Part shown: positions 22,980 through 50,742 of the stretch, piece by piece
Numbering within the stretch: the first letter of the stretch is position 1
How the letters are laid out: every line of letters starts with the position of its first letter
From: an uncultured Muribaculaceae bacterium
GTDB taxonomy: Bacteria; Bacillota_I; Bacilli_A; RF39; UBA660
Assembly (NCBI GenBank): GCA_964349455.1
Contig: CAYGGG010000002.1
Location: 1 to 61,034, forward strand
DNA: 61,034 nucleotides
Reading direction: 5' to 3'
Made by a program: the position numbers and the translations under genes
The notes under the pieces: generated by a model
What the model was told of the DNA's origin: nothing
The model's database searches: none
What the model saw: only the letters and a program-made list of their open reading frames with translations

Positions 22980-24067
22980 CAACTAGTGTTTATCTTCATG
23001 TTCCTTTTTGTAAATCAATCTGCCCATATTGTGATTTTTGTAAAATAGTTTACAATAAAAAATTGGTAAAAGAGTATTTTGTTTATTTAAGGAAAGAAGT
23101 TTCAACTTTTTATAAGGGGGAACGGTTAAAAACGATTTATATTGGTGGTGGAACACCAAGTGCTTTATCGTTAAGTGAATTAAAGGAATTGTTTTTGATT
23201 ATTGATTTGTTTAAAAAAGAAAAAAATTGTGAAGTTACGATTGAAGTAAATCCAGATACGATTAGTTTACAAAAGTTGCAGTTTTTACGAGATAAAGTTA
23301 ATCGAATTAGCGTTGGTGTTCAAACTTTTAATGATCAGCATTTGTTTTTTTTAAATAGAAATTATAATAAAAAGGTAATTTTATCTAAAATTAAGTTAAT
23401 GAAAGAGATTGGTTTTAAAAATATTAGTATTGATTTAATTTATGGTTTTAAAAATCAGACGTTAGATGATTTGAAAAAAGATTTATTAATGGTGAAAAAA
23501 TTAGATGTGTCGCATCTTTCAATTTATAATTTAATTGTTAAGGAGAATACTGTTTTTTCTGATTATGAGGGTGATCCGGATTTGGATTATCAAATGTATT
23601 GTCTATTGGAAAAAGAGTTAACTGATTTTATTCATTATGAAATAAGTAGTTTTGGGGAAAAAGGATTTTTTAGTAGACATAATTTGGTTTATTGGCATAA
23701 TCAACCTTATTATGGATTTGGTTTGGGTGCGAGTGGTTTTGTTGATTTGATTAGGTATCAAAATAGTGATAATTTTAATTTGTATAAAAAAGGAGTTAGG
23801 GTTTTAGAAAAGGTGTCTTTTTCGGATATGATTGTTAATCAATTTATTATGAATTTACGCTTGTTAAAGGGAATTAGTGAAAAAGCGTTTATTAATAGAT
23901 ATGGGATTAGTTTTTTAAGTTTTAAAAATGTTGAGCGTTTAATTATGGAAAAAAAGTTAATCTTTAAGAATGGTTATTTGCGGATTTCGAAAAAAAAGAT
24001 GTTTGTTAGTAATGAGGTTTTGTTAAGATTAGTGGAAGATTATGAGGTGGGAAATGGAAAAGATTAG
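22976..24067 (+). CDS. hemW: Radical SAM heme chaperone HemW (HemN-like)
   Basis: YLHVPFCKSICPYCDF (CxxxCxxC), IYIGGGTPS and RISVGVQTF. The TTG start overlaps the polC stop, so the start is less certain. Confidence 0.9.
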   Translation: MTTSVYLHVPFCKSICPYCDFCKIVYNKKLVKEYFVYLRKEVSTFYKGERLKTIYIGGGTPSALSLSELKELFLIIDLFKKEKNCEVTIEVNPDTISLQKLQFLRDKVNRISVGVQTFNDQHLFFLNRNYNKKVILSKIKLMKEIGFKNISIDLIYGFKNQTLDDLKKDLLMVKKLDVSHLSIYNLIVKENTVFSDYEGDPDLDYQMYCLLEKELTDFIHYEISSFGEKGFFSRHNLVYWHNQPYYGFGLGASGFVDLIRYQNSDNFNLYKKGVRVLEKVSFSDMIVNQFIMNLRLLKGISEKAFINRYGISFLSFKNVERLIMEKKLIFKNGYLRISKKKMFVSNEVLLRLVEDYEVGNGKD

Positions 24068-24602
24068 TGTGTTTGAAGAAGAATTAAATTATATTAGTGA
24101 TTTAAGGATAAAGAATAGCTTGATTAATTATATTGAAACATTACCTGATTATTTCTTTTTAATTGCTGCTAGTTCTAGTGGTAAGTATCATCCTAGTTAT
24201 GCTTTGGGCGAGGGTGGTTTAGTAAGGCACACGAAAGTGGCTTTGAAAATTGCTAATGCTTTATTTAGAAATGATTCTATTCAGTCATTTAGCAGTTTGG
24301 AAAAGGATTTGATTTTTTATGCATTATTAATTCATGATAGTTATAAGTTGGGTTTAAATCAGGTTGAGCATACAAGATTTGATCATCCGTTAGTGGCGGC
24401 TGATCAGTTTGTTGTAAATAGTGTTGGTTTGATGGAGAATGAAAAGAAATTAATTAAAGGGATGGTTGAAAGTCATATGGGACAGTGGAATGAAAATGTG
24501 TATGAGAAAATTCAATTGCCAAAGCCTGCTAATGAATTGGAACGGTTTGTGCATTTGTGTGATTATTTGGCTAGTCAAAAGTTTTTGGAAATAAAGTTTT
24601 AA
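24054..24602 (+). CDS. HD-domain phosphohydrolase-like protein
   Basis: SSSGKYHP...GGLVRHT...LLIHDSYK...HLCDYLAS carries the H...HD...D pattern. GAGGTGG lies before ATG 24054. Confidence 0.7.
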   Translation: MEKISVFEEELNYISDLRIKNSLINYIETLPDYFFLIAASSSGKYHPSYALGEGGLVRHTKVALKIANALFRNDSIQSFSSLEKDLIFYALLIHDSYKLGLNQVEHTRFDHPLVAADQFVVNSVGLMENEKKLIKGMVESHMGQWNENVYEKIQLPKPANELERFVHLCDYLASQKFLEIKF

Positions 24603-24650
24603 CTTTATTTTTTTTATATTTTATTGTATACTTATTATAGGAGTGGTAAG

Positions 24651-26255
24651 ATGATTTTTCGTAAACCATATGCAATCTTTATTAAATATTTTAAATTAAT
24701 CCATTTGGCCTTAGCAACGGCAACGATTTATTTAATTTATCGAATGGTTTTAATTTTGAATTTTTTAAATGAATCAATTACAACTCCGCGATTTAATTTA
24801 AGTGGATCAGTTAATATTGATCTTTTTGATTTTTGGATTTATTTAACGCCCGTTTTGATAATTTTAGTTTCGATTATGGTTTTAAGTGTTTTGGTTTATA
24901 AACAAAAACCCTATCGTTTTTATGCGATTGCTTTAATTGCATTTATTGTTATTTTTTTGTTTGGTTTTTATTTAGCTGATTATTTACAAGTGATGGAAGT
25001 TCGAATTATGCCGGGCCAGAGTTTGAGTTTAGTCCGTGATTTGGTTTTGTTATGTATTGTTATTGAAGCTATTGCGGCGATTAAGTTTTTAATAACGGGA
25101 ATTGGTTTTGATATTAGAAGTTTTGATTTTGGAAAAGATTTAGCGGAACTTGAAATTGATGATATTGATCGTGAAGAATTTGAAGTTGAGGTTAAGGTTG
25201 ATATTAATAAAGCAAAACGAGATGTTTTTCGTAATGTTCGTAGTTTTAAATATGCTTATTATGAAAACAAATTTCGTTATAATGTTGCTATTTTTATGGC
25301 TATTGTAATGCTTTCGTTTGTTCTTTTTAATACTTATCGTAATCGAGTGATTGCTTTAAGCGAGGGCGATTGGTTTGTTGGTCGACAATTAGAGCTAACT
25401 GTTAGGGAAAGTTATTTGACAACAAAAAATTATGCTAATGTTAAAATGATTGACGATACGGTATTGTTAATTTTAAAAATGGATCTTGTTTCAAAAAGTA
25501 ATCTCCCTAAACCTTTGGAAAATGCTTATTTTAGAATTGAAGTGGGAAATTATTCGTTTTATCATTCTAAAAAATATCGCGACAGTTTGTTTGATTTAGG
25601 AATTGTTTATGATGATCAAAAAATTGGTAATGAGAGTCAGTCTTATTTGTTTGTGTTTGAAATTCCAGAGGCTTTTGTTGATCGGTTATTAGTTTTTAAG
25701 TATGTTGATGATTTTCGTTTTGTTAGTAAAAAAAGAGGCCCAGGTATTCAAAATTTTTTCATAGATCCGGTTAGTTTAGATAATAATGATGATATTTATG
25801 TAACAAAACTTGGTGATAACGTTTATTTTCGCGAACCGATTCTGGTTAGTTCCTTAAGTGTTGAAGAATATGAGTTAAAAGAAGAAATAAAATTAGATTA
25901 TCGTTTCTGTATTAGTAGTAATAATTGTTTTATTTCTCATGAATATTTAAGACCGGGTTATTATGGAAATGAGGAAATGGCTATTTTAAGATTAAAGGGT
26001 GATTTTAATTTAGATGAACGAGTTAAGCATCTTAATCTTTCTTATGTTGAATTTCTTCGTTCTTTTGGTAAGTTAGAATATGTTGTAAATGGTCAGAAAA
26101 AGTGGGTTGGGTTTAGTCAAGAAGCAAAGGCGGTTCGTGTTAATACTGGAAAAAATGTTTATTTGGAAGTGCCGAAAGATTTGTTAAAAGCCGAAAAAAT
26201 TGAGTTAGTAGTTAATCTTCGCAATTATACTTATAAACATCTTTTAAAATATTAG
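24651..26255 (+). CDS. Membrane protein (4-5 N-terminal TM helices, ~300-aa extracytoplasmic C-terminal domain), unknown family; first gene of the island
   Basis: AGGAGTGG RBS before ATG 24651. Hydrophobic segments span the first ~240 aa. Confidence 0.55.
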   Translation: MIFRKPYAIFIKYFKLIHLALATATIYLIYRMVLILNFLNESITTPRFNLSGSVNIDLFDFWIYLTPVLIILVSIMVLSVLVYKQKPYRFYAIALIAFIVIFLFGFYLADYLQVMEVRIMPGQSLSLVRDLVLLCIVIEAIAAIKFLITGIGFDIRSFDFGKDLAELEIDDIDREEFEVEVKVDINKAKRDVFRNVRSFKYAYYENKFRYNVAIFMAIVMLSFVLFNTYRNRVIALSEGDWFVGRQLELTVRESYLTTKNYANVKMIDDTVLLILKMDLVSKSNLPKPLENAYFRIEVGNYSFYHSKKYRDSLFDLGIVYDDQKIGNESQSYLFVFEIPEAFVDRLLVFKYVDDFRFVSKKRGPGIQNFFIDPVSLDNNDDIYVTKLGDNVYFREPILVSSLSVEEYELKEEIKLDYRFCISSNNCFISHEYLRPGYYGNEEMAILRLKGDFNLDERVKHLNLSYVEFLRSFGKLEYVVNGQKKWVGFSQEAKAVRVNTGKNVYLEVPKDLLKAEKIELVVNLRNYTYKHLLKY

Positions 26256-26303
26256 TAAATAAGGTATAATGAAAAGAGTAGGCAAGGGTGCAGGTGGGTG
26301 AGC

Positions 26304-26978
26304 ATGAAAAAGATTGATGGGTTATTACTGATAATTGCTTTTTTAGTGTTAATGCCGATGCAAATTAATGCTTTTTGTGATACAATGATTGTGAATAGTG
26401 AAAAGGCTACTTTGAAAAAGATTGCTTCAAATGTTACTTTTAGTACTTTTTATGAAGAAACTGATGATCAACTGGTGTTTAGTATTAGAATAAATAATCT
26501 CGATAAAAGTTTAAAAGTAGTTGATAATAAAACAAAAGAAGAAATTTTTTATGGACTTAATACTAAAGATATGCGTGAGTATATCGTTGGCAATTATCAG
26601 CCCGGTCAATCAGTTCAATTTAATTTTTTTGTACTAGGTAGTGATTGTATTAGTGAAGAAGAAATTTTAATGGTTAGGTATGTTAATCTACCTTATTACA
26701 ACAAATACTATAAAGATCCGCTGTGTGTTGGTTTAAGTAATAATTTAATTTGTCGTAAATGGGCGAATGTTAAATTAGATTATGATGATTTTAAAAATGA
26801 GATTGTGAAACTAAAAGAAGAGGTTAATGAAGAGAATGATAAAGAAGAAGATGATGAAATAGGGTTTATTTCGTTGTTTGAATTAATTAAGGAATATTAT
26901 ATATATTTACTTGGTTTAGGGATATTAGTTGTCGGATATCGAATGTATATGCGAAGAAAAGATGATTTTAAATTATAG
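26304..26978 (+). CDS. Secreted/bitopic protein with a signal peptide, conserved Cys residues and a C-terminal TM anchor
   Basis: MKKIDGLLLIIAFLVLMPMQINA signal sequence. C-terminal YIYLLGLGILVVGYRMYMRRKDD. AGGTGG lies 6 nt before ATG 26304. Confidence 0.55.
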   Translation: MKKIDGLLLIIAFLVLMPMQINAFCDTMIVNSEKATLKKIASNVTFSTFYEETDDQLVFSIRINNLDKSLKVVDNKTKEEIFYGLNTKDMREYIVGNYQPGQSVQFNFFVLGSDCISEEEILMVRYVNLPYYNKYYKDPLCVGLSNNLICRKWANVKLDYDDFKNEIVKLKEEVNEENDKEEDDEIGFISLFELIKEYYIYLLGLGILVVGYRMYMRRKDDFKL

Positions 26979-26987
26979 GAGGTTTTG

Positions 26988-29900
26988 ATGAAAATAAATA
27001 AAAAATATTTAGTAATTATTAGTATATTTTTAATTATGATTTTTCTTAGCCCCATAATTGGTTTTAGTTGGACGGGTCCAATTGATGATTGGATTAGACC
27101 TCCTGGTGATAAAAGATTAACTGGAACAAAGTATGGTCTTAATGATAAATCAAACGCAATTCGAATTTATGTTGTTAAACAAACGGGAAACAATGTAAAA
27201 GTGGTTTCAGCGGTTAAAGATTTTCGTTCGTCAGTTGTTTCTAAGGAAGGACATATTACCCATTATTCGGTTTCTGCTAATGGTTTGGGGACGAGAATTA
27301 ATGGTGATAGTCGGTTGGTGAGCGATGGTAATTACAAGAAATATGTTGAAACAAAGTCATCATATTTTGACAAGGCGCTACCAAAAGTTTTTGTTGATGG
27401 TGGAACACAGGATGTGAAAAAGTTTATTATCGATTTATATGCTGATGAGGGAAATTGTAAACCAAATTGTTTGTCTGAATTTTTAATTAATGTGTTAGGT
27501 GGAATGGATGCTACAACCAAAAGTGATTTTCGTAATTTGAATAATTTTAGTAGTTATTTTATTATCGTCGAACCAGTGCATTATTATTGGCGGATAAGTG
27601 GTGCTCCTGATGCAATTGCTTTTTCTTCAACTGATGGAGCTTTGTATTATAATAATTTTGGAACGGCTTTGTCAGATGTTCGAACAAGAATTTATAATAT
27701 GGCGCCGTTGGCAATTATGAATGTTGATATTCATCAACAATTAAGTGTATTAGATCGAGTGACAATGCCACCATTAAAGCCAGCAATTTATGATCCAGAT
27801 GTTTGTTATTCAGCTTGCTTTTATACAAAAGATGAAATGATTGGTCGTTCTGGATATGGAATTGGATATTTTTATATGAATGACTTTGTTGAAAAAATTC
27901 CACCAGATGACACACCAAAAACTTGTCAAACAATGATTAACCAGTTTCCAAATGCAACTGAATATTGGAAATTTGTTGAAGAATATTTAAATAAAACAAG
28001 TGAACGTTATCAAGGAGATAAATTTAATTGTTGTACTGATTTTGATAATTATATTAAGTCAATTGAAAAAACGAAACCAGAGTCGAAAATTATTATTTCC
28101 TATAAAACAGACTATGAGTTGTATTGCAAATCAAATGTGACACCACCAACGCCAATCCCAGAAGATCCAGATGGAAAAGAATGTCGTTATTCGGTAGCGG
28201 TTTCTTGTCCAGATTGTACCGAAAATCAATCGGGTATAATTAAGGATATTGATGATTGGGATTGTATTTTTGCTAGTGATAAGGTGGCATCGGTTCCGTT
28301 TAAAAATCATTATAATTCAAACCTCAATAATCGTTATTGTAAGGTTTATTGTCGTGAAGAAATGGGCTATGTGTATCCGAAAGAAACATTTACGGTTTAT
28401 GCTGGGTCGCATTTTACCATGGGAGATTTTCCGAGTGATTCATCAACGCTAGTACCAAATTGGGGAAGTGTTGCTTTTCAGGGAACAGCCAATTGTCGTC
28501 CTTCGACTGATCGGGATTTGAAAACTGATAAATTAGCGGGTGATCATGATTACTTAAATATTGATCATGTTCTATTTGCAAAAGATTGGAAAGAATTAAA
28601 TCAAAAATTAGGTGATGCTTGGGATAAGTATCAAGTTGCTGTTTTACAAGATTGGGCAAAAAGTAATGCAAAATTTGATGGGAAAACGTGTGGTTTAGTT
28701 TTTGATGATAGTTATTCAAATAAAGATGGCTGTGTTAACGAGGAAAAAATGTACAAGTGTCCACAAGGGGTACCGGTTGATCGAGGAACTGATCCAAGAA
28801 ATACGGAGTTTAAATGTACCTATACAACCGATGCTAAAGAGGTGTCTGGCCGATATGAATGTTTAAGTGGCGTTTTGGAAGGTTCTTTGTGTCGCCATCA
28901 AGTTGATGCAATATATTCGCATTATCGTTGTTTGGGGACTAGTAATGCTAAGTATGAAAAAGTTAAAACACCAAAGTATGAATATGCGAAAGCAAATATT
29001 AGAGGAAATGAAAGTAGTGGTTCATTTAGTTGGTGTACTGGGCGAAATGATGTAACTTATAGTTGGGAAGATGATTACGGTTCTGCTGGTTATCATCGGC
29101 GGTATGTTATTGATAGTCAGGTAACTAGTTTACGAACTTCAACTGAGTTATATCGTAATGCGGCAAGCACTTTACCTAGTAATTTAATTACTTCACCAAC
29201 GGTTGAAGATAGTAAAAAATTATATGATGATTATTATAATCAGTTGGAAAATCGCTTGCTTCAAATAAGAGCTTGCCAAAGTTTTGAATATAGTTATGAT
29301 CATCTTAGTCCAAAGATGCTAGTTGGATATAAAGATTATAAATATCCAGAACCAAAGGAATTTGAATTAGATTTGGTTGTTACTGAACAAAAAGACACAG
29401 ATTACTTGTTAAAAGGAAAAAAGGTTGATTATTCGACTGCAGATATTGATCGATTTGTTTGTGCTACACCAATTAGTCCAGGGCGGACGGAAAGTTTATT
29501 GATGGTTGGAAGGGCTTTTAATTGTCCGGTTGAAAAGCAAGAGTATCCTAATAATGATTCCTTTTATCATACAAAAGACCGAGTGATTAATTATGAGTTA
29601 AATAAAGATGTTTATCGATATGTTGTAAAACATAGCGAAAAGGGGAAGTTCACGTTTGACTCGGTTTCTTATCATCAAAAACCAAGTAGTGGTAATTTTA
29701 TTGATATTGGTTATGGTAATTTTCCAATTCATTATTATCAAGGGGAAAATTATCCAAGTACAAGTACGGTTTGGTTGCGGCTAGCAAATAGTCCTAGTGA
29801 AAGTTTTGGGTTCAATAATCGGTTTGATAAATTTGTTTTCGGAATGTACAAACCAGCGTTTGTTGATTCTGAATGCATGCGTTATGAGTGTGATTATAAT

Positions 29901-30326
29901 ATTAAATATCGAATTATTCCCCCTGATGATGGTGGACCTACTGAAACAATCGATATTTTGGTTAAATTTAGACCAATTGATCTTGTTGAACCATTCCCTG
30001 GGAATGATGGTTTGGGTAGGATGCCAGGGTGGAATTGGCAAGGTGACCATGTAATTGAGAGTGTGATTGTTAATAATCGTGGTGTTAGTGGAAGTCGGGT
30101 CTATTTTGATGTCGACCCAATGTATACAATTAATTTAAATTTTAGTAATATTTTTGAGATTAGGGGTTATAATAGAGGTAGAGACTATTTTGATTTTAAT
30201 TTAAATTGTCGAACGGGGCTCACTAGCGAAGGAAGACATCGCGAGTGTCAAAGTAGTTTTGTCGATCAATTTGTAACAAGAAATAGTTGTTTGCTTAATT
30301 CATGGGATGGTTGTCATAATTTATAA
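26988..30326 (+). CDS. Giant Cys-rich secreted protein, paralog A (1112 aa), unknown family
   Basis: AGGAGG RBS. N-terminal signal/anchor LVIISIFLIMIFLSPIIG. No LPXTG motif or C-terminal TM. Collinear with 30338-33925. Confidence 0.7.
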   Translation: MKINKKYLVIISIFLIMIFLSPIIGFSWTGPIDDWIRPPGDKRLTGTKYGLNDKSNAIRIYVVKQTGNNVKVVSAVKDFRSSVVSKEGHITHYSVSANGLGTRINGDSRLVSDGNYKKYVETKSSYFDKALPKVFVDGGTQDVKKFIIDLYADEGNCKPNCLSEFLINVLGGMDATTKSDFRNLNNFSSYFIIVEPVHYYWRISGAPDAIAFSSTDGALYYNNFGTALSDVRTRIYNMAPLAIMNVDIHQQLSVLDRVTMPPLKPAIYDPDVCYSACFYTKDEMIGRSGYGIGYFYMNDFVEKIPPDDTPKTCQTMINQFPNATEYWKFVEEYLNKTSERYQGDKFNCCTDFDNYIKSIEKTKPESKIIISYKTDYELYCKSNVTPPTPIPEDPDGKECRYSVAVSCPDCTENQSGIIKDIDDWDCIFASDKVASVPFKNHYNSNLNNRYCKVYCREEMGYVYPKETFTVYAGSHFTMGDFPSDSSTLVPNWGSVAFQGTANCRPSTDRDLKTDKLAGDHDYLNIDHVLFAKDWKELNQKLGDAWDKYQVAVLQDWAKSNAKFDGKTCGLVFDDSYSNKDGCVNEEKMYKCPQGVPVDRGTDPRNTEFKCTYTTDAKEVSGRYECLSGVLEGSLCRHQVDAIYSHYRCLGTSNAKYEKVKTPKYEYAKANIRGNESSGSFSWCTGRNDVTYSWEDDYGSAGYHRRYVIDSQVTSLRTSTELYRNAASTLPSNLITSPTVEDSKKLYDDYYNQLENRLLQIRACQSFEYSYDHLSPKMLVGYKDYKYPEPKEFELDLVVTEQKDTDYLLKGKKVDYSTADIDRFVCATPISPGRTESLLMVGRAFNCPVEKQEYPNNDSFYHTKDRVINYELNKDVYRYVVKHSEKGKFTFDSVSYHQKPSSGNFIDIGYGNFPIHYYQGENYPSTSTVWLRLANSPSESFGFNNRFDKFVFGMYKPAFVDSECMRYECDYNIKYRIIPPDDGGPTETIDILVKFRPIDLVEPFPGNDGLGRMPGWNWQGDHVIESVIVNNRGVSGSRVYFDVDPMYTINLNFSNIFEIRGYNRGRDYFDFNLNCRTGLTSEGRHRECQSSFVDQFVTRNSCLLNSWDGCHNL

Positions 30327-30337
30327 AGGAGGCTTTT

Positions 30338-33300
30338 ATGAAAAAATTTAGCAGAATTATATTAGGAGTTTTTGTTTTAACAATTGGGATATTGTTGTTT
30401 CAAGAAACAATTTTTGCTGGATGGCAGGGCTCAATTGGTGGTACAGGTGGAAATCAAGGAGGAAGTGGGACAACCGCTAATGTTTATATTACAAATAGTG
30501 GTGCACATGCAATGAGAGTGTATATGGTTAAACAAGTCGGCGGCAGTGTAACAGTTGTTTCTAATGTAAAAGATTTTCGAAAACAAGATGGGTGGCAGTA
30601 TAAGACGGTTTTAAATTATTCTACTTCAGGTAACGGCCTTGGGACGAGATTTGGCAGTAATTTGGTAAAAAACAATTCGGGATATAATGCCCACGTTGTT
30701 ACAAAATCTTCTCAGGAGGGAGTTCCGCTTCCCACCTTATATGTAGAGGGGGCAGGACAGGCAGTTCGTAATTTTTTCTTGGCGTTGAATCGTAATCAAA
30801 CTAATTGTAGTCCAAATTGCTTACATAAATTTTTAGTTGAAACACTGGGTGTTAATAGTGAATTGAAAGGTATTTTGGAAAAACAAGGAGATGTTAGTAA
30901 TTATTTTATTGTGGTTGAACCAGTTCATTATTTTTGGAAAAATCCAAGTGGTAATGCAATTGCCTTTTCTTCAACTGATGGTGCTAAATTTTATAAAGAT
31001 TTTGTAAGTGGCGGAATACATAATGTGCAATCGCGAATTTTTAATCATTCCCCGTTGACACTTGTCAATTTAAATTCGAAGCCTTTAAATGCATTATCGG
31101 CAGCTGGGACACCATTAAAACCATGGTGTAGCAATGCAGCTGTTTGTTATAGTAATCGAAGTCAGTATTTTTATACCTCGGCTCAAATGATGGGTAGTTC
31201 TGGATTGGGAATTGGTTATTTATGGGCGAAGGAAACTGATTTGGGTAAGGAATGCGATCCTAAGGATCCAAAAAATCCGTGTGAGGATGATGACGAAGAT
31301 ATTCCTAAAACTTGTGCTTCAATGATGTCAAACATTTCTGATTATAAAGCATATTGGGATTTTGTTAGATGGGGTTTGAATAAAACGGATAAGGATTATA
31401 AGATGAATTGTTGTAGTGATTTTAAAAATTATATTGAAAGGCAAAAAGCAACTAATCCTACTTCTCTAATTTTATCAGCACATCAAGTTGATTATGAGTT
31501 GTATTGTGAAAGTCCGACAACAACAGTCCCGCCACCAACACCAAAAGATCCGCAATGTGCGTATTCGGTTCTGGTTTCATGTCCAGAATGTACTGAGATT
31601 CAATCTGGTGCGATTAAGGATATTGATAATTGGGATTGTATTTTTTTAAGTGATCGTTCGCCAAATGTGCCTGTTCAATTTAGAAATCATTATATTCAAG
31701 CATCGATTGGTGATAATCGTTATTGTAAGGTATATTGTCGTGAAGAAATGGGCTATGTTTTTCCAGAGGAAACATTTACGGTTAAGGCAGGACTTCATTT
31801 TACAATGGGAAGTACTTCTGTTGATACACCATTTGGAATTCCAAACTGGGGGAATGCTGCTTTTCAAGGAACCGCAAATTGTATGCCAGATATAAAGAGA
31901 GATAAGAAAATAGAGCCTTTAGCTGGAATTGATCGAACTAAGACAGGTGATCATGATGATTTACATATTGACCACGTGAAATTTACACATGATTGGAAGG
32001 ATGTTAATATTCGTTTGGGGACGGCTTGGGATAAATGGCAAGTTGGTGTTTTACAAGATTGGACTAAGAATAATGCCCAATATGCCGGACGGGATTCATC
32101 ATGTGGATTGGTTTTTAATGATAGTGAGTCAAGAGCAGCAGGCTGTGTTGATGAAAATAAAATATATTCATGTAGTTATGGGAAACCGAAAGATGGCTCA
32201 TCCAATAATAGTCGAAAAACTATATTTGAATGTCGCCATGTAGTACCCGCTACCGCGCATTATACGTGTTCTTCAGGAACTTTCAATGGGGTCGATTGTG
32301 ATACACAATGCACAAGAATGATTGATTGTTATAATTCTGTCACTAAAAAATGGGAGAAGTGTCCTCAAAATTATAGTTGTTCTGTTGCGGCAACATTTTC
32401 TCATTACACTTGTGATGAACCACAATATGATAAACCATTACCAGGGGATTCTTCTCAATGTTATTATGATTTTACCTCAGATTCAACTAGATGGCAGTGT
32501 AACAGTACAAGCGGTGCATATTATCAAAGAGTGAGAACTCCTTCATATAATTATAATAATCCAAATATACGAGGAAATGAAAGTAGTGGGTCGTATAATT
32601 GGTGTACAATAAGGAGCGATGTTAATTATGATTGGACTAACGATCCGAATACAGCAAGTGGATTTACTCGTCGCTTTGTTTCAAATACTCAGGTGAGTAG
32701 TTTATCGTCTAATACAAATTTATATGATCCCGCTCCAAATACAGCAAGAAGACCGGCAACGAGACCATCTGTTAATTCGTTGCGAAATGCCTATGATGTA
32801 ATTTATCGTGAACGGGAAGGTTATTTGCAACAAATAAGAGCTTGTCAAAATTATGATTATAACTATAATCATTTAAATCCGCAAATGCGAATGGGGTATA
32901 ATGATTTTAAATATCCGTTACCGCCTGATGTTGATTATGCATTAGAATCAAAAATAACCGAAACTTCAGAAATTGATTATCTGGTAAAAGGACAATATGT
33001 CAGTAGTTCATCAGATGTGATTGATCGATTTTCGTGTAATCCACCAACTACACCAGCGACTACTACTAGTTGGCAAACTGTTGGGACGGCTGTTAAATGT
33101 CCAATTACAAAACAAGATTATCCAGATAATGATGCTTTCTTCTATACTAAAGATCGAGTTATTAATTATGAGTTAAATCAAAATATTCATCGTTTTGTTA
33201 TTAAACATAGTGAAAAAGGAAATTTTACTGATGATTCGGTTTCGGTTCACAGAAGACCTGCAACCGGAAATTATATTGACATTGGATATCCAAATTTACC

Positions 33301-33925
33301 GGTTCATTATTTTCAGGGAGACCATTATCCTGATACTAGTCAAGTATGGATTAGATTAGTCGATGTACCAAGCCCTAGTTTAGGTTCAAATAATAGATTT
33401 GACAAGTTTATTTTTGGGCAATATAAACCAGCAACCATTAATGCAAGAGAATGTATGCGTTATGAATGTGACTATAATATTACCTATCGGTTTATTCCGC
33501 CTGATGATGGTAATCCTAATCCGGGAGGTCCTAATCCAGGAGACCCAACAGGGGTTATTGATATATTAGTTAAATTTCGACCAATCGATTTAGGAGATCC
33601 TTTTCCAGGTCATTCAGGGACAGGGCGAACGCCAGGATGGAATTGGAATTCAGACAATGTTATTACGCAAGTTATTAGTAATAATCGAGGGGTAACGGAA
33701 GATAGACTTTATCGCGACCGAAATCCGATGTATACGATTGATTTAAGATTTAATGCAATTTCAGCAATTCGTTCATATAATAGGAATCGTGATTATAATG
33801 ATTTTACGCTTACTTGCCGAACCGGATTAACTGGTAATAGTCGGCATCGTGAATGTCGAAGTACATTTGTAAATCAGTTTGTAAAAAGAGATTCATGTTT
33901 AAGCACTTGGAACGGTTGTCATTGA
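30338..33925 (+). CDS. Giant Cys-rich secreted protein, paralog B (1195 aa), unknown family
   Basis: AGGAGG RBS and signal/anchor IILGVFVLTIGILLF. Blocks shared with paralog A include VEPVHY, AIAFSSTDGA, YCKVYCREEMGYV, FQGTANC, NIRGNESSGS, LQIRACQ, TKDRVINYELN, ECMRYECDYNI and IDILVKFRPIDL. Confidence 0.7.
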   Translation: MKKFSRIILGVFVLTIGILLFQETIFAGWQGSIGGTGGNQGGSGTTANVYITNSGAHAMRVYMVKQVGGSVTVVSNVKDFRKQDGWQYKTVLNYSTSGNGLGTRFGSNLVKNNSGYNAHVVTKSSQEGVPLPTLYVEGAGQAVRNFFLALNRNQTNCSPNCLHKFLVETLGVNSELKGILEKQGDVSNYFIVVEPVHYFWKNPSGNAIAFSSTDGAKFYKDFVSGGIHNVQSRIFNHSPLTLVNLNSKPLNALSAAGTPLKPWCSNAAVCYSNRSQYFYTSAQMMGSSGLGIGYLWAKETDLGKECDPKDPKNPCEDDDEDIPKTCASMMSNISDYKAYWDFVRWGLNKTDKDYKMNCCSDFKNYIERQKATNPTSLILSAHQVDYELYCESPTTTVPPPTPKDPQCAYSVLVSCPECTEIQSGAIKDIDNWDCIFLSDRSPNVPVQFRNHYIQASIGDNRYCKVYCREEMGYVFPEETFTVKAGLHFTMGSTSVDTPFGIPNWGNAAFQGTANCMPDIKRDKKIEPLAGIDRTKTGDHDDLHIDHVKFTHDWKDVNIRLGTAWDKWQVGVLQDWTKNNAQYAGRDSSCGLVFNDSESRAAGCVDENKIYSCSYGKPKDGSSNNSRKTIFECRHVVPATAHYTCSSGTFNGVDCDTQCTRMIDCYNSVTKKWEKCPQNYSCSVAATFSHYTCDEPQYDKPLPGDSSQCYYDFTSDSTRWQCNSTSGAYYQRVRTPSYNYNNPNIRGNESSGSYNWCTIRSDVNYDWTNDPNTASGFTRRFVSNTQVSSLSSNTNLYDPAPNTARRPATRPSVNSLRNAYDVIYREREGYLQQIRACQNYDYNYNHLNPQMRMGYNDFKYPLPPDVDYALESKITETSEIDYLVKGQYVSSSSDVIDRFSCNPPTTPATTTSWQTVGTAVKCPITKQDYPDNDAFFYTKDRVINYELNQNIHRFVIKHSEKGNFTDDSVSVHRRPATGNYIDIGYPNLPVHYFQGDHYPDTSQVWIRLVDVPSPSLGSNNRFDKFIFGQYKPATINARECMRYECDYNITYRFIPPDDGNPNPGGPNPGDPTGVIDILVKFRPIDLGDPFPGHSGTGRTPGWNWNSDNVITQVISNNRGVTEDRLYRDRNPMYTIDLRFNAISAIRSYNRNRDYNDFTLTCRTGLTGNSRHRECRSTFVNQFVKRDSCLSTWNGCH

Positions 33926-33945
33926 GAAAAAGGAGGGAATAGATT

Positions 33946-34359
33946 ATGAAAGAGTCGTTATGGGGGACATTTGTAATTATGTTTGGAATTACTGCTGTGT
34001 TTTTTGTCTTATTGTTTCAAAGAATTGTTACAACGAGTGAACATAATTATCATATATTGAAGGAGGCTACTGAGGGTGCGATGTACGATGCACTTGATTA
34101 TGCTGAATATCGTGCTTATGGAACAGTCCGAATCGATCGTGAAAAATTTGTTGAAAATTTTGTTCGCCGATTTGCTGAGAGCGCGTCATTAACTGATCGA
34201 TATTTTATTGAAATATATGATGTGTTCGAGGAACCACCAAAAGTAAGCATTCAAGTTTCCAGTGTTGAATCCGGAAACCCTGGAACGAATGAACGCTTTG
34301 AATTTAATATTGTGAATCGAATTGATGCAATATTAGAAACGATGTATGTTAATCCATAG
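33946..34359 (+). CDS. TadE/pseudopilin-like protein (N-terminal MKESLWG leader plus hydrophobic helix)
   Basis: MKESLWG-TFVIMFGITAVFFVLLF followed by a ~110-aa soluble domain. It shares the leader pattern with 38100, 38304 and 38774. Confidence 0.45.
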   Translation: MKESLWGTFVIMFGITAVFFVLLFQRIVTTSEHNYHILKEATEGAMYDALDYAEYRAYGTVRIDREKFVENFVRRFAESASLTDRYFIEIYDVFEEPPKVSIQVSSVESGNPGTNERFEFNIVNRIDAILETMYVNP

Positions 34360-34377
34360 TAAGAAAGGAATGAGAAA

Positions 34378-35247
34378 ATGAATGGTATAGTAAATGGTTT
34401 ACAAGGTTTTTTAAAAAACAAGAATATTGTTACAATTTTGGGCGTAATTGCAATTTTGGGTATTTTGTATTTTACTTATAATAATCAAATTGAGAAGCAG
34501 GTTCGTCCATATCGTAATATTCCGGTTGCAAGAGAGGCAATCCAGCCCGGGACAATGATCACTGATGAAATGATTGATTATGTTGATATATCACCAATTG
34601 TCTTTAATCATGGCCGTGTTGCTCGATTTTCAAACGAAGTTGTTGGGAAATATGCTGATTATAATACGGTAATTCCAGCAGGAAGCTTGTTTTATCTAGA
34701 TGTTTTAATTAGTGAAGAACAATTGCCTGATTCGGTATTTACCAAAGTTAAGGATGGCGATGTTGTAACAAGATTTGCGGTTACAACGGAAACAACATAT
34801 GGAAATTCAATTTTTCCGGGAAATAGAATTGATATTTATATGAAAGTAATTGTGCCTAGTACAAGAACAATAATGGTTGGAAAATTATTAGAAAATATTA
34901 CAATTATTGCCGTAAAAGATAATAGCGGTAAAGATGTATTTGTTAGTAGAGAAGATGAGTCACAATCAGCAATGTTAATTTTTGGATTAGACCCAATTTT
35001 ACATAATCTTTTGTTGAAGGCGAGTTATATGCGAGATTTCGAAGTGGAATTAATTCCGGTACCACATGGTGGAACAGTTGAGAATACTGGTGGAACGCAA
35101 ATAAAATCAGAAGCATTGAAATTGTTGATTGAAGCAAACTCTGAACCAAATGAAGAGTTATTTAGTGATCAAGATATTGTGGTTGACGATTTAATAATTG
35201 AAGATGAAAATATTGATTTAGAGGATTTAATAGACGGAGTTGAGTAA
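34378..35247 (+). CDS. CpaB/RcpC-like SAF-domain pilus assembly protein
   Basis: An N-terminal TM (IVTILGVIAILGILYF) is followed by the SAF-like IPVAREAIQPGTMITDEMI...VVGKYA...IPAGSLF. The C-terminal tail is acidic. Confidence 0.55.
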   Translation: MNGIVNGLQGFLKNKNIVTILGVIAILGILYFTYNNQIEKQVRPYRNIPVAREAIQPGTMITDEMIDYVDISPIVFNHGRVARFSNEVVGKYADYNTVIPAGSLFYLDVLISEEQLPDSVFTKVKDGDVVTRFAVTTETTYGNSIFPGNRIDIYMKVIVPSTRTIMVGKLLENITIIAVKDNSGKDVFVSREDESQSAMLIFGLDPILHNLLLKASYMRDFEVELIPVPHGGTVENTGGTQIKSEALKLLIEANSEPNEELFSDQDIVVDDLIIEDENIDLEDLIDGVE

Positions 35248-35249
35248 AA

Positions 35250-36347
35250 ATGAATGACAACATGTTTGCCCAAATTGATTTTGGCGCGTTAAAACCTTAT
35301 TTGGAAAGCGATGACATAACGGATATATCATATAGTAATGGTGGTCAGATATGGCTTAAAACACTTTCTAAAGGGATTTTTCGAGTTGAAAATCCAAGTA
35401 TTGATGATACTTTTATTGAAAAAGTCGCTTTCCAGTGTTCAAACGTGATGGGAAAGACCTTCAATATGGCTCATCCTTTTCTTGATGCAGAAGGAGCAGA
35501 GTTACGTTTAAACTTTGTTCATCGCTCAATTGCAACAAATGGTGTAGCGGTTGTTTTTAGAAAGACACCAGCTAAAATTAGATTGCAAAAAGATAAAATA
35601 TTAGAAGAACAATATATTACAATTGACATTCTTGATTTTTTAATAAAGTGTGTTGAAGGACATTGTAATATTATTGTTTGTGGTGAAACTGGTTCTGGTA
35701 AAACCGAACTTGTCAAGTATTTAGCGTCGCATACAAAAGAAAACGAAAAGATAATTACGATTGAGGATACTTTAGAATTACATTTAGATCGAATTTTTCC
35801 AATGCGCGATATTGTCGCAATGAAAACAAATAATATTGCTTCGTATACTGATGTGTTGGTTACTTGTATGCGCCAAAATCCAAGATGGATTTTATTATCA
35901 GAGGTTCGTAGTGCGGAAGCGGTAATGGCGGTTCGAAATTCAATTTCATCGGGTCATTATATTTTATCAACAATTCATGCCGAAAAAGCAGCTTCTATTC
36001 CAAACCGAATGTATAGTTTGCTTGAATCTAATCAAGATATTGAACAATTTTTAAAATCAATATATCGTTATATTCAATTAGGGGTTTATGTTCGTGGTTT
36101 TCAAGACAAAGAAACCAAAAAGTTTAGACGTGAGGTTGCTGAAGTAACCGAGTTTTATGTTACTGATGATAATGAAGCTAAATATAATATAATTTATAAA
36201 AAAATGGCAACCGGTAATGTTGTGCGAAGAAAACCAAGTAAGTATTTATTTGAATATCTTGAAATACAAGGTGTTAGTTTGGAAGAAGATGCGATTAAAC
36301 CATCGGGTGAAACCGAAAAAGAGGAAAAAGTTGAAGTTTTAATATAA
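35250..36347 (+). CDS. TadA/CpaF/VirB11-superfamily secretion ATPase (T2SSE)
   Basis: Walker A VCGETGSGKTE (~35681-35708), IITIEDTLEL, Walker B/Arg RQNPRWILLSEVR and His box ILSTIHA. Confidence 0.85.
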   Translation: MNDNMFAQIDFGALKPYLESDDITDISYSNGGQIWLKTLSKGIFRVENPSIDDTFIEKVAFQCSNVMGKTFNMAHPFLDAEGAELRLNFVHRSIATNGVAVVFRKTPAKIRLQKDKILEEQYITIDILDFLIKCVEGHCNIIVCGETGSGKTELVKYLASHTKENEKIITIEDTLELHLDRIFPMRDIVAMKTNNIASYTDVLVTCMRQNPRWILLSEVRSAEAVMAVRNSISSGHYILSTIHAEKAASIPNRMYSLLESNQDIEQFLKSIYRYIQLGVYVRGFQDKETKKFRREVAEVTEFYVTDDNEAKYNIIYKKMATGNVVRRKPSKYLFEYLEIQGVSLEEDAIKPSGETEKEEKVEVLI

Positions 36348-36359
36348 AGGAGGCGAAAT

Positions 36360-37265
36360 ATGGGAACATTAGCAGCATTTTTATTGATTAGTGTTTTATT
36401 TGTTTTTTTGGTAGCCTATCGAAAAAACACTGGCGATAGTGTTTACAAATATATTTCAGGACAGGTTGTTGGTGTGTATGAAAAATATGCCCCCTATTCT
36501 TTTCAATCAGTTAGAGAAAAAGTAAAAGGATTGGGTCAGGAATATTCATCAAGGCAGTATGCAATGCAGTTTTCTATTTTTGCAATTGCCGCGTTTGCAA
36601 TATCATATTTATATTTTTACAGCGTAATTACATCTTTAATTTATGCGTTGTTAGCAATTATGGTAATACCATATTTAACTTATTTAAGATGTAAGCGTAT
36701 TTATAGTGAGTTTTTGTTTGAACAAATTCAAGTATATACGACTAACGTTATTATGGAATTTGCCACAACTCAAGCGTTTGTTAAAGCACTAGAAGGGGTC
36801 TATGAATCAGGTGTTTTAGAAGACCCAGTTAAAGGTGATGTAAAGATAATGATTGACATGGCCTATGAAAGCGGAACGATTGAGGGAGCGCTTGATTATA
36901 TGAATAGTAGATATGATTATTTTGTTGTAAAAAATATGCATCAATTATTTTTACAAATTACAAATGAAGGTTCGAAAGATTCTGGGGATGCTTTAGAAAA
37001 TATGTCGTTAGATATTGATATGTTAGTCGAGAATGTTTATCGTGACCGAATGGATCGTTCGAGTTTTCACAAAAAGTTTTTACAATTTGGAATTATTTTA
37101 TATTTAATGGTAATGATGGTTCAATTTTTGTTAGGAATTGAGTCATACATTAAATTGTTAAATAGTGGCTGGGTGCAGCTGTTGATTCATGGTGTGGTAG
37201 CCATTAATACTTATTTTTTGTTGAATGGTGAAAAATATTATAATGAGAATGTAGGTGCAGAATAA
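36360..37265 (+). CDS. TadB-like inner-membrane platform protein (T2SSF-like)
   Basis: Topology is TM, cytoplasmic helical domain (...VKALEGVYESG...IEGALDYMNSRY...DSGDALENMSLDID...), then C-terminal TMs. It lies directly after the ATPase. Confidence 0.5.
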   Translation: MGTLAAFLLISVLFVFLVAYRKNTGDSVYKYISGQVVGVYEKYAPYSFQSVREKVKGLGQEYSSRQYAMQFSIFAIAAFAISYLYFYSVITSLIYALLAIMVIPYLTYLRCKRIYSEFLFEQIQVYTTNVIMEFATTQAFVKALEGVYESGVLEDPVKGDVKIMIDMAYESGTIEGALDYMNSRYDYFVVKNMHQLFLQITNEGSKDSGDALENMSLDIDMLVENVYRDRMDRSSFHKKFLQFGIILYLMVMMVQFLLGIESYIKLLNSGWVQLLIHGVVAINTYFLLNGEKYYNENVGAE

Positions 37266-38047
37266 TGGAATTTGTTATTATAGCAATAATTTTTGTTTAT
37301 ATTTTAGAAGTAAATAATCGTGTTAGTACAAGGAAATTTGTTAAAGAGGCAGAACCATATTTCCGGTTTATGATGGAAGATGATTATAAATTTTTACTGA
37401 CGGTTCGTTATGGGAATGATGTTATTGTTGATGACTTGTACGGAACAAGAGTTCGTAATGGGATAATAACAACCATTGCGCTGGCTTTTATTTTTGTATC
37501 GAGATTAGATTTATTGTATATTGCAATTTGTTTAGTTGCAGGATTCGTGATATTTAAACAACCTTATATGAAATTACAAAAATACTATCAAAAAAATCTT
37601 CATTCTATCAATTTAATGCTTCCTTATTATTTAAAAAGTTTAGAAATATTGATCCAGCATTATACGGTTCCAGTGGCATTATCAAAATCAATTTTAACAG
37701 CACCTGATATTTTTAAATCTGGTTTAGAGAAATTGGTTCATAAAATTGAAGCTGGTGATTCAACGGTTGACCCATATATGGATTTTGCTAAAGAATATCC
37801 TGTTCGTGATTCAATGCGAATGATGCGACTTTTATATCGTTTGGGGCTTGGTTCTCAAGAGAATAAGCATCAACAATTAATGATGTTTTCGCGAACTGTT
37901 TCGACATTACAAAATAAATCACGAGAGACTAAGTATAAAGATCGTTTGGAAATGATGGAAAAGAAAACAATGTTGATGTTGGGGTGTACCGGTGGTGGCA
38001 TTATGATGATAATGTTAATGGCAATTATGATGATGATGGAGTTATAG
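37265..38047 (+). CDS. TadC-like inner-membrane platform protein (T2SSF-like)
   Basis: ATAATG overlap with the preceding gene. Same TM/helical/TM architecture (LPYYLKSLEILIQHYTVPVALSKSI...). Confidence 0.5.
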   Translation: MEFVIIAIIFVYILEVNNRVSTRKFVKEAEPYFRFMMEDDYKFLLTVRYGNDVIVDDLYGTRVRNGIITTIALAFIFVSRLDLLYIAICLVAGFVIFKQPYMKLQKYYQKNLHSINLMLPYYLKSLEILIQHYTVPVALSKSILTAPDIFKSGLEKLVHKIEAGDSTVDPYMDFAKEYPVRDSMRMMRLLYRLGLGSQENKHQQLMMFSRTVSTLQNKSRETKYKDRLEMMEKKTMLMLGCTGGGIMMIMLMAIMMMMEL

Positions 38048-38099: not shown

Positions 38100-38270
38100 G
38101 TGAAAGAAGCAGCAGGAGAAGCGAACTTAACAGTTGTAGCTATTATTTTAATTGGGGTGATTGCAGCAGTTGTTACACCGCTAATTACAAGAATGATGAA
38201 TACAACGAGAGAAAGAGGCGAATGCATGGATACTGGTGGTGTCTGGGTAAATGGCCGATGTCAGCGATAA
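38100..38270 (+). CDS. Flp/type IVc-like major pilin candidate, 56 aa (absent from the supplied ORF track)
   Basis: GTG start 7 nt after AGGTGG. It translates to MKEAAGEANLTVVAIILIGVIAAVVTPLITRMMNTTRERGECMDTGGVWVNGRCQR: a short polar leader, a ~22-aa hydrophobic helix and a C-terminal Cys-x11-Cys loop. It holds the flp position between tadC-like and tadE/F-like genes. Confidence 0.55.
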   Translation: MKEAAGEANLTVVAIILIGVIAAVVTPLITRMMNTTRERGECMDTGGVWVNGRCQR

Positions 38271-38303
38271 GATAACAATTAAAGAATAAATAGGAGGTGT
38301 TTG

Positions 38304-38771
38304 ATGCGCGAAGGTATTGGTAGTATTCAAATGTACAATATCATTATCTTGTTTTTCTTGATCGTGGTAGCATTTTTATTTGCAACAATTAGCTATCAAC
38401 GAGCGTTTAAAGTAAACACTTTAATTACAAGTAGTATTGAAAGATATGAAGGGTATAATGGACTTGCAATTCCAGTTATTGAACGAGATTTAAATACAAT
38501 TGCTTATCAGAGATTACGAGGGGGCGTGACACCAAATTGTCCAGCAAAAGATCCTTTGGTATTAGTGTCAGGTTCTAATTTATCTCATAAGTATTGTGTT
38601 TATGAAGGGGCTTTAGAAACAGTTACTTTTTCGGACGGCTTACAGGTTTCTTTTAGACAATATACAATTGTAACGTACGTTACATTTGACCTGCCCTTAA
38701 TAACTGATTTAATTGAAATTCCTGTCATTTCAAAAACAAATCGAATTGTCTGTTTTGAGGGCGGCTGTTAA
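38304..38771 (+). CDS. TadE/TadF-like pseudopilin
   Basis: AGGAGGTG RBS. MREGIGS-IQMYNIIILFFLIVVAFLF leader and helix, with conserved Cys residues. Confidence 0.45.
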   Translation: MREGIGSIQMYNIIILFFLIVVAFLFATISYQRAFKVNTLITSSIERYEGYNGLAIPVIERDLNTIAYQRLRGGVTPNCPAKDPLVLVSGSNLSHKYCVYEGALETVTFSDGLQVSFRQYTIVTYVTFDLPLITDLIEIPVISKTNRIVCFEGGC

Positions 38772-38773
38772 TT

Positions 38774-39229
38774 ATGAAAGAGTCAATTGGCAACACGATG
38801 GTTTTTACTTGGGTTATCATTTTTCTTTTTTTAATAATGCTTTTAATTATGGGGTCTTTAATGTACTCAAGAGCATTTAAAAATAGAAATGAAATAATAA
38901 CAATTATTGAAAAACATCGTGGATTTAATCTTCAGGCTAGAAATGAAATTGATGAGTTTTTAAGAATGGTTGGATATCGTCAAGCAAAAGATTTTCATAA
39001 TCGAGATGTTAATAATAGTTGTCAACCACCAAGTGGTTGGTCTAACGAGCCAGTACAAAGTGTATATTTGTATTGTGTTTATCGAAATAATAACGCCGAT
39101 TTATATCAGGTTGTTATTTTCTTGTATTTGGATATCCCGATTGTTGGTGAATTTATTTCTTTTCCAGTTCGTGGTGAAACAAGGGTATTTGTTAATTGGC
39201 GAAGCCAAAGTCTTGAGGTGATTAGATGA
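38774..39229 (+). CDS. TadE/TadF-like pseudopilin (paralog of the previous gene)
   Basis: MKESIGN-TMVFTWVIIFLFLIMLLIMG. It shares ...YSRAFK.N..I...IE...G... and YCVY with 38304-38771. Confidence 0.45.
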   Translation: MKESIGNTMVFTWVIIFLFLIMLLIMGSLMYSRAFKNRNEIITIIEKHRGFNLQARNEIDEFLRMVGYRQAKDFHNRDVNNSCQPPSGWSNEPVQSVYLYCVYRNNNADLYQVVIFLYLDIPIVGEFISFPVRGETRVFVNWRSQSLEVIR

Positions 39230-40239: not shown

Positions 40240-40282
40240 CATACATAGTATTGTATGATAAAGTAAATCTAAGGAGGAGATT

Positions 40283-40603
40283 ATGGAATTATACGTTTTA
40301 GCCACGGGACCATGCATGGGCATGCCAACTGTTTTGATTGATTTGTTAGGAATAGTTATTCAGGTGATAAAAATTGTTATTCCGATTGTTTTAGTTCTTT
40401 TCGGAATGCTTGATTTAGGGAAGGCTGTTTTTGAACAAAAAGAAGAAGATATAACAAAAGCTCAAAAAATGTTTGTTAAAAGACTAGTAGCAGCTATTTT
40501 GGTATTTTTAGTAGTTGTAATTGTTCAATTTGTAATCGGCGTTATTGCGAATGCAACAGGCGATTCAGAAGTGATTACATGCTTTGATCATATTTTTAAT
40601 TAA
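40283..40603 (+). CDS. Small two-TM hairpin protein, VirB2/TrbC-like pilin-like candidate
   Basis: AGGAGG RBS. Two long hydrophobic helices are separated by the charged loop LGKAVFEQKEEDITKAQKMFVKR. Confidence 0.4.
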   Translation: MELYVLATGPCMGMPTVLIDLLGIVIQVIKIVIPIVLVLFGMLDLGKAVFEQKEEDITKAQKMFVKRLVAAILVFLVVVIVQFVIGVIANATGDSEVITCFDHIFN

Positions 40604-41818: not shown

Positions 41819-41826
41819 GTGAAGAA

Positions 41827-43845: not shown

Positions 43846-43863
43846 AAAAAGGGGTGATTTAAA

Positions 43864-46494: not shown

Positions 46495-46512
46495 TAGGCA
46501 GGCGGTGATAAA

Positions 46513-49302: not shown

Positions 49303-49314
49303 GGACGGTGAAAT

Positions 49315-50016: not shown

Positions 50017-50028
50017 AGGAATGATATA

Positions 50029-50733: not shown

Positions 50734-50742
50734 GAGGGTTCT

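Follow-up and report, generated by a model that had tools for sequence, protein, structure and literature searches.

Large accessory surface proteins of type IV filaments are already a known kind of protein. PilC/PilY1 of type IVa pili and MshQ of the MSHA pilus are Sec-exported, non-pilin proteins of ~1000–1200 amino acids (aa) that are encoded beside minor pilins, combine conserved machine-docking parts with variable binding parts, and occur in paralogous copies (PMC13533445; PMC7541494); in PilY1, a free β-strand of ~10 residues at the extreme C-terminus is donated to a PilK-type minor pilin (PMC13533445). Among Tad (type IVc) pili, TadG/CpaL and the Kil "Tip" minor-pilin complexes of Myxococcus are accessory proteins at or on the tip (PMC13533445, PMC12607857, PMC12075869), with variable domains and exchangeable versions, so that interchangeable Tad tips are known (PMC13533445, PMC12075869). 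An operon of gut Clostridia that contains a DUF5411 gene has been predicted to be "secretion-related" and is uncharacterised (PMC9523054). Here we describe two tandem giant cysteine-rich proteins, A and B, encoded in a 61,034-nucleotide stretch of contig CAYGGG010000002.1 (hereafter the window) from an uncultured Muribaculaceae bacterium placed by GTDB in the RF39 lineage, together with the family to which they belong and the operon in which they reside. The reading we tentatively favour, to which we give slightly less than an even chance, is that A and B are Sec-exported, pilus-associated surface proteins that would be functional analogues, not homologues, of PilY1, MshQ and CpaL.

The tandem paralogs and their family

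Gene A (26988–30326, forward strand) encodes 1112 aa with a Sec-type N-terminus and 32 cysteines, and gene B (30338–33925, forward strand) encodes 1195 aa with a signal peptide followed by a Gly-rich linker and 40 cysteines. An in-frame TTG at 26985 also appears for A in the list of open reading frames (ORFs); we took the ATG at 26988 as the start because the AGGAGG at 26977–26982, five bases 5' of it, fits that ATG. The two genes are separated by 11 nt (AGGAGGCTTTT), which contain the Shine-Dalgarno sequence of B. An earlier interpretation made from the letters alone (the sequence-only reading) had called the two ORFs adjacent collinear paralogs, each preceded by AGGAGG; the sizes, the gap and a full-length, collinear BLASTP alignment (1011 bits, 47% identity, 62% positives) agree with this. 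Its list of 23 shared motifs stands but for one residue, as 22 are found at collinear positions in both proteins and LQIRACQ becomes QQIRACQ in B. Its statement that dozens of cysteines are conserved is true between A and B, in which 31 align, and extensive disulfide bonding of both proteins is plausible.

B has the architecture of A with one extra insertion, a B-specific Cys-rich expansion of a variable insert (32258–32520, forward strand; B residues ~641–728) at which the A/B alignment is gapped. The segment HYTCSSGTFNGVDC begins at nt 32258 and SHYTCDEPQYD at nt 32399, and the Gly- and Pro-rich linkers lie at B34–44 (GGTGGNQGGSG) and B1058–1070 (GNPNPGGPNPGDP), where they had been reported. 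In a structural model of A, the insert segment sits between two predicted long helices (527–559 and 739–764). GC content is 34–36% at 28000–36000 and 42000–44000, covering the giants and a TrbL-like gene, against 27–31% in the flanks, a difference that may be due to Gly/Cys/Pro-rich coding and not to foreign origin.

Each protein has a single hydrophobic segment, at the N-terminus; the hydropathy scan found no second transmembrane (TM) segment in either, including at the C-terminus, a regular-expression search found no LPXTG-like motif, and Pfam found no choline-binding, SLH or LysM repeats and no wall-anchor domain. The expectation of an N-terminal signal or anchor and of no known wall anchor is thus borne out.

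Word-indexed searches, in which A matched itself, its paralog and one weak relative, had implied that the proteins are near-orphans (3–5 proteins); this was overturned by an exhaustive HMMER scan of 1.84 billion representatives of clusters at 50% identity. The scan recovered 950 cluster representatives at E <= 1e-3, of which 752 have E <= 1e-10 and 123 have E <= 1e-30, and most members are 800–1340 aa long. None of the 10 clusters that were looked up is named in any source. The N-termini of the family are classical Sec signal peptides, most of them ending in VxA-type sites: among 58 aligned members, a Sec-type signal peptide is present in all 55 that begin at a start codon with an N-terminal segment, and none of the 58 has a further TM segment. 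Cysteine content in these members is 2.2–4.5%. Eight cysteines are invariant across the 58 (C410, C455, C503, C968, C1074, C1087, C1101 and C1109 in A numbering), and ~16 more are present in 43–70% of them.

Conservation is concentrated in two cores of near-fixed length (93–143 and 111–150 aa). Core 1 spans A 400–512 and contains the VYCREE motif (...C..C...I.D..DW..IF...VYCREE...P...G.YFT...C), reduced across the family to an invariant C..D...W..I...C-R-E...P...G..F...C. The second, a C-terminal domain of ~120 aa (A 996–1112; R.I.L..PFPG...R..G.NW...IR.YN...Y.D..L.C...C.S.F...C...C), reads RPIDL..PFPG...G.NW in A, has four invariant cysteines and makes the C-terminus the most conserved part of the giant; the last cysteine is invariant and lies 0–12 residues from the end, and the tails beyond it are not conserved. 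Length varies widely in the N-terminal region (163–661 aa), the insert (0–263 aa) and the Cys-rich linker (13–166 aa). A and B carry the complete family signature of Sec signal peptide, core 1 and C-terminal domain. In one relative (P0003; locus L001, 2461–5502), the linker before the C-terminal domain contains three tandem four-Cys repeats of ~37 aa (residues ~700–830; consensus C..E.DA...G.DWNP....CCP.GT.YN..TGKC), a pattern that fits small disulfide modules.

A confident match to an unrelated family, which the sequence-only reading had named as the result that would count against it, was found nowhere, and its impression of no recognisable family held in every search made. A and B had no match in Pfam (hmmscan, E <= 0.01), NCBIfam or PHROGs, nor did P0003, six clear relatives had no Pfam match, and sequence profiles built from 3 and from 58 sequences had no match in the PDB. 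An AlphaFold2 model of A from the 58-sequence alignment has a mean predicted local distance difference test score (pLDDT) of 70.5, with confident cores at ~120–200, 400–560 and 740–975, and an AlphaFold model of residues 737–1112 from 107 sequences reached a pLDDT of 74.5. Foldseek returned nothing at E <= 0.001, either for the full-length model against the PDB and BFVD or for the C-terminal half against the PDB; the best E-values were 0.087, 0.12 and 0.27, with TM-scores <= 0.11. The top two matches, both perforin/MACPF-like, are non-significant and were rejected as noise (TM-score 0.04, probability 0.02). Both the family and its fold are apparently uncurated and undescribed.

These searches bear on another reading, in which the giant would act as cargo or as an effector, such as an enzyme, toxin or nutrient-binding protein, and after Sec export would be released or pushed across the wall by a piston action of the Tad-type machine like that of a type II secretion system (T2SS); a cargo role had been raised in the sequence-only reading. 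T2SS substrates bear Sec signals and are often encoded beside their machine, the giant has no anchor motif, related DUF5411 operons have been classed as "secretion-related" (PMC9523054), and the top two Foldseek matches, though noise, were to MACPF-like proteins. However, searches of Pfam, NCBIfam, PHROGs, the PDB and BFVD turned up no catalytic or toxin domain; no His is invariant, most invariant positions being Cys, Gly, Pro or aromatic; variation in polymorphic effectors is usually at the C-terminus, which is where the giant is most conserved; and a monoderm can release a Sec substrate without a T2SS. We therefore regard a cargo role as very unlikely, and the evidence favours an exposed protein associated with the pilus or machine over cargo.

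Gene order, divergence and copy number

Related loci tie the family to a filament operon. In 13 of the 14 informative loci outside the window, a family member lies directly upstream of a DUF5411 gene within the same 14-gene order; L009 and L016 apparently represent one species, and merging them leaves 12 loci. These span 26–38% giant identity to A/B and several lineages and habitats: the order was found in a Mycoplasmatota metagenome-assembled genome (MAG), in "Firmicutes bacterium CAG:822", in several uncultured Bacilli MAGs, in an NCBI MAG assembly, and in JGI sediment metagenome, Logan and ENA assemblies, with both sediment and gut metagenomes represented. A scan of metagenome contigs added one locus only. 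The sequence-only reading would have been weakened by homologs occurring mostly without Tad or type IV secretion system (T4SS) neighbours, and the neighbours in these 13 loci are DUF5411 and Tad-like genes.

The module runs in the order 543-aa membrane protein, 226-aa anchored protein, giant, DUF5411 protein, CpaB-like protein, CpaF-type ATPase, two 3-TM proteins, 56-aa protein, two minor-pilin-like proteins, 337-aa protein and 106-aa protein. In the window and the 13 loci alike, the family member sits between a gene for an anchored protein of ~215 aa and DUF5411, upstream of the CpaF-type ATPase. The giants had been placed at the head of the pilus operon; they do precede the Tad-like genes, but A and B are the third and fourth genes of the module, after the 543-aa and 226-aa genes.

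Within this fixed order the proteins diverge at very different rates. Giant identity across loci is 26–38%, against 65–87% for the core machinery (ATPase and 3-TM proteins), and the giant evolves two to three times faster than the filament machine. Copy number also varies. Most loci carry one giant; A and B are reciprocal best matches (1011 bits to each other; the next relative scores 505 bits), and the tandem pair is therefore a lineage-specific duplication. Locus L015 has two non-tandem giants (P0072 and P0060; 510–4496 and 9323–13306) that are 44% identical, along with two paralogous membrane proteins of ~540 aa. Each of these giants is closer to proteins of other genomes than to the other, and their duplication is therefore older than, and independent of, that in the window. 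The sole exception among the 14 loci is P0031 (L019/L020, 395–3793; 1132 aa), an orphan that keeps the C-terminal signature motif, adjoins a patatin-like gene and has no Tad genes downstream.

Taken together, Sec export without an anchor, locked synteny, fast divergence, conserved cores beside variable segments, and duplicated or orphan copies are best explained by a protein that is exposed, docked on the machine and variable in its binding surface. Cores of near-fixed length flanking variable segments are the layout expected of a conserved docking part joined to a variable binding part, and the variation in copy number seen in the window pair, the L015 pair and the orphan P0031 fits interchangeable surface modules. 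Under the pilus-associated reading, A and B would be extracellular proteins and constant accessory components of a divergent Tad-type (type IVc-like) filament system in monoderms. Once exported, the conserved body (core 1 with its VYCREE domain, a β-rich domain and the C-terminal domain of ~120 aa) would dock on the exposed machine, either on a tip or minor-pilin complex formed by the DUF5411 protein and the two minor-pilin-like proteins of ~150 aa, or on the 226-aa and 543-aa membrane partners. The fast-evolving N-terminal region, Cys-rich insert and Cys-rich linker would face outward and bind cells or substrates, and two tandem copies could provide two specificities, used alternatively or in combination. 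Extracellular docking, a location on the filament or at its tip, an adhesin role and disulfide bonding are what we infer for A and B from these patterns.

The same synteny could be explained if the giant, the 543-aa protein and the 226-aa protein together built a scaffold, conduit or cap, outside the cell or across the wall, for the filament to pass through. The giant would then belong to a layer equivalent, in a monoderm, to RcpA/RcpB/TadD, and would not be an adhesin. These three genes are always neighbours in a constant order, directly before DUF5411, the CpaB-like gene and the ATPase; their products are similarly divergent (23–44%); the conserved cores and invariant cysteines suggest a rigid architecture; and the module otherwise has no known wall-spanning component. 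An orphan copy far from any Tad genes, repeated gene duplication, and the huge length variation of the insert and N-terminal region would, however, all be unusual for a stoichiometric ring or conduit component, and Foldseek detected no oligomerisation or secretin-like fold. On balance we consider a scaffold role unlikely.

The filament module and its chromosomal setting

The first module gene (24624–26255, forward strand) is listed with 543 aa and encodes a polytopic membrane protein with 29–44% identity across the loci covering it. It has 5–6 predicted TM segments in its first ~240 residues, followed by a non-hydrophobic C-terminal domain of ~300 aa, and no Pfam match. Its listed TTG start is probably wrong; we prefer the ATG at 24651, giving ~534 aa, because homologues start at the equivalent MIFRKPYA or MILRKPYA. 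The second gene (26298–26978, forward strand; 226 aa) encodes the anchored protein, which is 23–38% identical to the product of the gene directly upstream of the giant in other loci and comprises an N-terminal signal peptide, a four-Cys ectodomain, an acidic linker and a hydrophobic C-terminal stretch, YYIYLLGLGILVV. This stretch is a possible membrane anchor, although a 19-residue hydropathy scan did not flag it as TM.

Downstream of the giants, and all on the forward strand, the DUF5411 protein (33946–34359, 137 aa; Pfam PF17424, E = 1.3e-50) opens with MKESLWG, a short polar leader that precedes a hydrophobic helix, and is 53–68% identical across 13 related loci. The CpaB/RcpC-like protein (34378–35247, 289 aa, one N-terminal TM segment) matches TIGR03177 pilus_cpaB at E = 9.6e-7, with a score below the curated cut-off, and has weak SAF and RcpC matches; its homologues, at 48–60% identity across loci, also match RcpC weakly. 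The secretion ATPase of CpaF/TadA type (35250–36347, 365 aa) is 75–87% identical across loci, and its best PDB matches are archaeal GspE (2oap), CpaF (8rkd) and FlaI, with VirB11 slightly weaker. The CpaF/TadA-clade ATPase that characterises Tad/type IVc systems is thus present in the operon (Pfam T2SSE, E = 3.5e-27). Two membrane proteins of 301 and 260 aa, each with a pattern of three TM segments (36360–38047; 65–76% identity across loci), are candidate TadB/TadC-type platform proteins, and PilC/GspF are reported in DUF5411 operons (PMC9523054).

An ORF of 56 aa, the size of Flp pilins (38100–38270, forward strand; MKEAAG followed by EANLTVVAIILIGVIAAVV...C...C), is conserved at 56–75% identity in 10 loci, and its product is probably the major pilin of the system. 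This ORF (MKEAAGEANLTVVAIILIGVIAAVV...C...C) is shorter than the usual ORF-length cut-offs. Next come two minor-pilin-like proteins of 156 and 151 aa (38301–39229, forward strand; 32–42% identity across loci), which begin with M[KR]E.IG and a hydrophobic helix and have two invariant cysteines. All four pilin-like proteins (genes at 33946, 38100, 38301 and 38774) start with M-[KR]-E-x-x-[G/W], in which E3 is invariant, followed by ~20 hydrophobic residues; as a sequence pattern, this N-terminus is a class-III-like signature, and the leader may be unusually short or unprocessed. The module ends with a 337-aa cytoplasmic protein and a 106-aa protein with two TM segments (39226–40603, forward strand; 46–62% and 40–52% identity, respectively), the latter with a faint T4SS_pilin match (E = 0.048). 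Promoter and terminator scans performed no better than on shuffled sequence. From its predicted products, we conclude that the operon surrounding the giants probably encodes a very divergent Tad-type filament system.

Several observations weigh against a pilus-associated role for the giants. Support for contact with a filament is all genomic, and the genomic context comes from a small sample, 14 loci out of 950 clusters. Parts of the filament system itself are poorly matched: the 3-TM proteins have only a faint T2SSF match (E = 0.07), the 56-aa pilin candidate has no Pfam Flp match, the minor-pilin-like proteins have no Pfam TadE match, and no prepilin peptidase (A24) is found among the genes of the window. 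The earlier pseudopilin calls accordingly stand on N-terminal sequence features and not on Flp or TadE families. Homology between the DUF5411 and minor-pilin-like proteins was not shown by hhalign (probability 5.9%), and PDB profile searches with each gave no match. The giant has no similarity in Pfam or Foldseek to PilY1, MshQ, TadG/CpaL or vWA domains, with the proviso that model confidence is moderate (pLDDT 70–75) and a fold match may have been missed. Finally, no terminal β-strand donation in the style of PilY1 is evident, because two invariant cysteines occupy the extreme C-terminus and there is no conserved free tail. As to the earlier suggestion that the giants are tip adhesins or cargo, the genetic tie to a Tad-type pilus operon holds; the role itself is a matter of interpretation, in which cargo is now the less favoured option.

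Directly 3' of the module, on the same strand, lies a set of T4SS-like genes identified by Pfam matches (40700–52980, forward strand), encoding a Cys-rich 372-aa membrane protein, a TrbL/VirB6-like protein, a VirB4-like ATPase, a 929-aa hydrolase with M23 and SLT domains, and a VirD4-type coupling protein. These genes are possibly a functional partner of the module. If so, the giant could be a mating or contact adhesin for the adjacent apparatus, with filament and giant bringing a partner cell close enough for DNA or protein transfer. In the Mycoplasmatota locus (L005), too, the genes for the 372-aa and TrbL-like proteins, the first two of the set, are 3' of the module; large surface adhesins are used in Gram-positive conjugation; and the Kil system, in which a Tad pilus is coupled to another secretion machine, the T3SS*, sets a precedent (PMC12075869). 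The link is not obligatory, however, as in CAG:822 (L006) the next gene after the module is on the other strand and there are no T4SS genes, while most related-locus sequences end 5' of the T4SS region; in addition, no relaxase or integrase was detected within the window. We judge this role to be quite unlikely. Less probable again, and put forward as speculation, is a broader version, a composite apparatus fixed in the chromosome of reduced-genome Bacilli and Mycoplasmatota, in which a leader-poor Tad-type filament would work together with a relaxase-less T4SS-like machine (VirB4, VirB6-like, VirD4 and a wall hydrolase) and the giants would serve as exchangeable heads for target recognition. 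It would mediate contact-dependent exchange of DNA or protein, or killing. As a Tad/T4SS combination it would parallel, in monoderms, the Kil-Tad/T3SS* of Myxococcus, and its central protein family would have a fold not seen before.

The wider setting is chromosomal. RuvA, RuvB, QueA, MiaA, PolC and a HemN-like radical-SAM protein are encoded upstream, and RmuC, a GT2, RNase R, SmpB and a tmRNA downstream. Neither the region (megablast) nor protein A (tblastn) had anything similar in plasmid and phage collections, and from these empty searches together with the housekeeping flanks we rejected a plasmid, integrative and conjugative element or phage origin for the window as a whole. The tmRNA gene (58089–58464, forward strand; tag peptide GKNILSSVFGSQPSYGVAYA) lies directly 3' of smpB (57617–58069). 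An ORF of 186 aa between the radical-SAM gene and the module (24042–24602, forward strand) has an HD-like motif, LLIHDSYK, and no Pfam match; we place it outside the module because it is not conserved in related loci.

Comparison with known systems

If the favoured reading is true, the giants would be large pilus-associated surface proteins of a class both new and abundant, with at least 950 clusters, no name and no fold match. Their host system would be a very divergent Tad-type one, in uncultured, reduced-genome Bacillota and Mycoplasmatota of gut and sediment, and would bear on how such bacteria attach to hosts, partners or prey. The 543-aa, 226-aa, giant and DUF5411 proteins form a defined gene set for the curation of new families.

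A and B fall outside the PilC/PilY1, TadG/CpaL, LPXTG and choline-binding/SLH/LysM families. Like LPXTG MSCRAMMs and PrgB-type aggregation substance, which are linked to adhesion or conjugation, the giants are large secreted surface proteins; unlike them, A and B lack both an LPXTG motif and a C-terminal TM segment, and Pfam finds in them no Ig-like, Cna or adhesin domain. At the level of the operon, the closest counterpart is the DUF5411 operon of Roseburia, Ruminococcus and Eubacterium (Miller et al. 2022, PMC9523054), which shares CpaF, a PilC/GspF-like protein, DUF5411 and a gut Firmicutes host with the module; it differs in having 8–9 genes and an internalin-like protein, and no giant Cys-rich member is reported there (PMC9523054). 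The tad locus of Bulleidia (PMC12786226) was considered as the same system and ruled out, as it is a canonical tadV-pilA-tadEFG operon.

The tip proteins of other Tad pili differ from the giants at the N-terminus. TadG/CpaL and the Tip proteins have a pilin-like N-terminal helix, and often a vWA domain, whereas the giants have an ordinary signal peptide and no TadE, Tad or vWA Pfam match. With PilC/PilY1 and MshQ, the giants have in common their size, Sec export, non-pilin nature, position beside minor pilins and paralogous copies, and they would also share the division into docking and binding parts that we propose for them. They have no PF05567 match in Pfam and no β-propeller match in Foldseek against the PDB, they are Cys-rich, and their hosts are monoderm with a Tad-like rather than a type IVa system; their extreme C-terminus is pinned by invariant cysteines, where PilY1 has a free donor strand. 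Should the pilus-associated reading hold, the principle of the large non-pilin tip protein represented by PilY1, MshQ and CpaL would extend to monoderm type IVc-like filaments by way of an unrelated protein.

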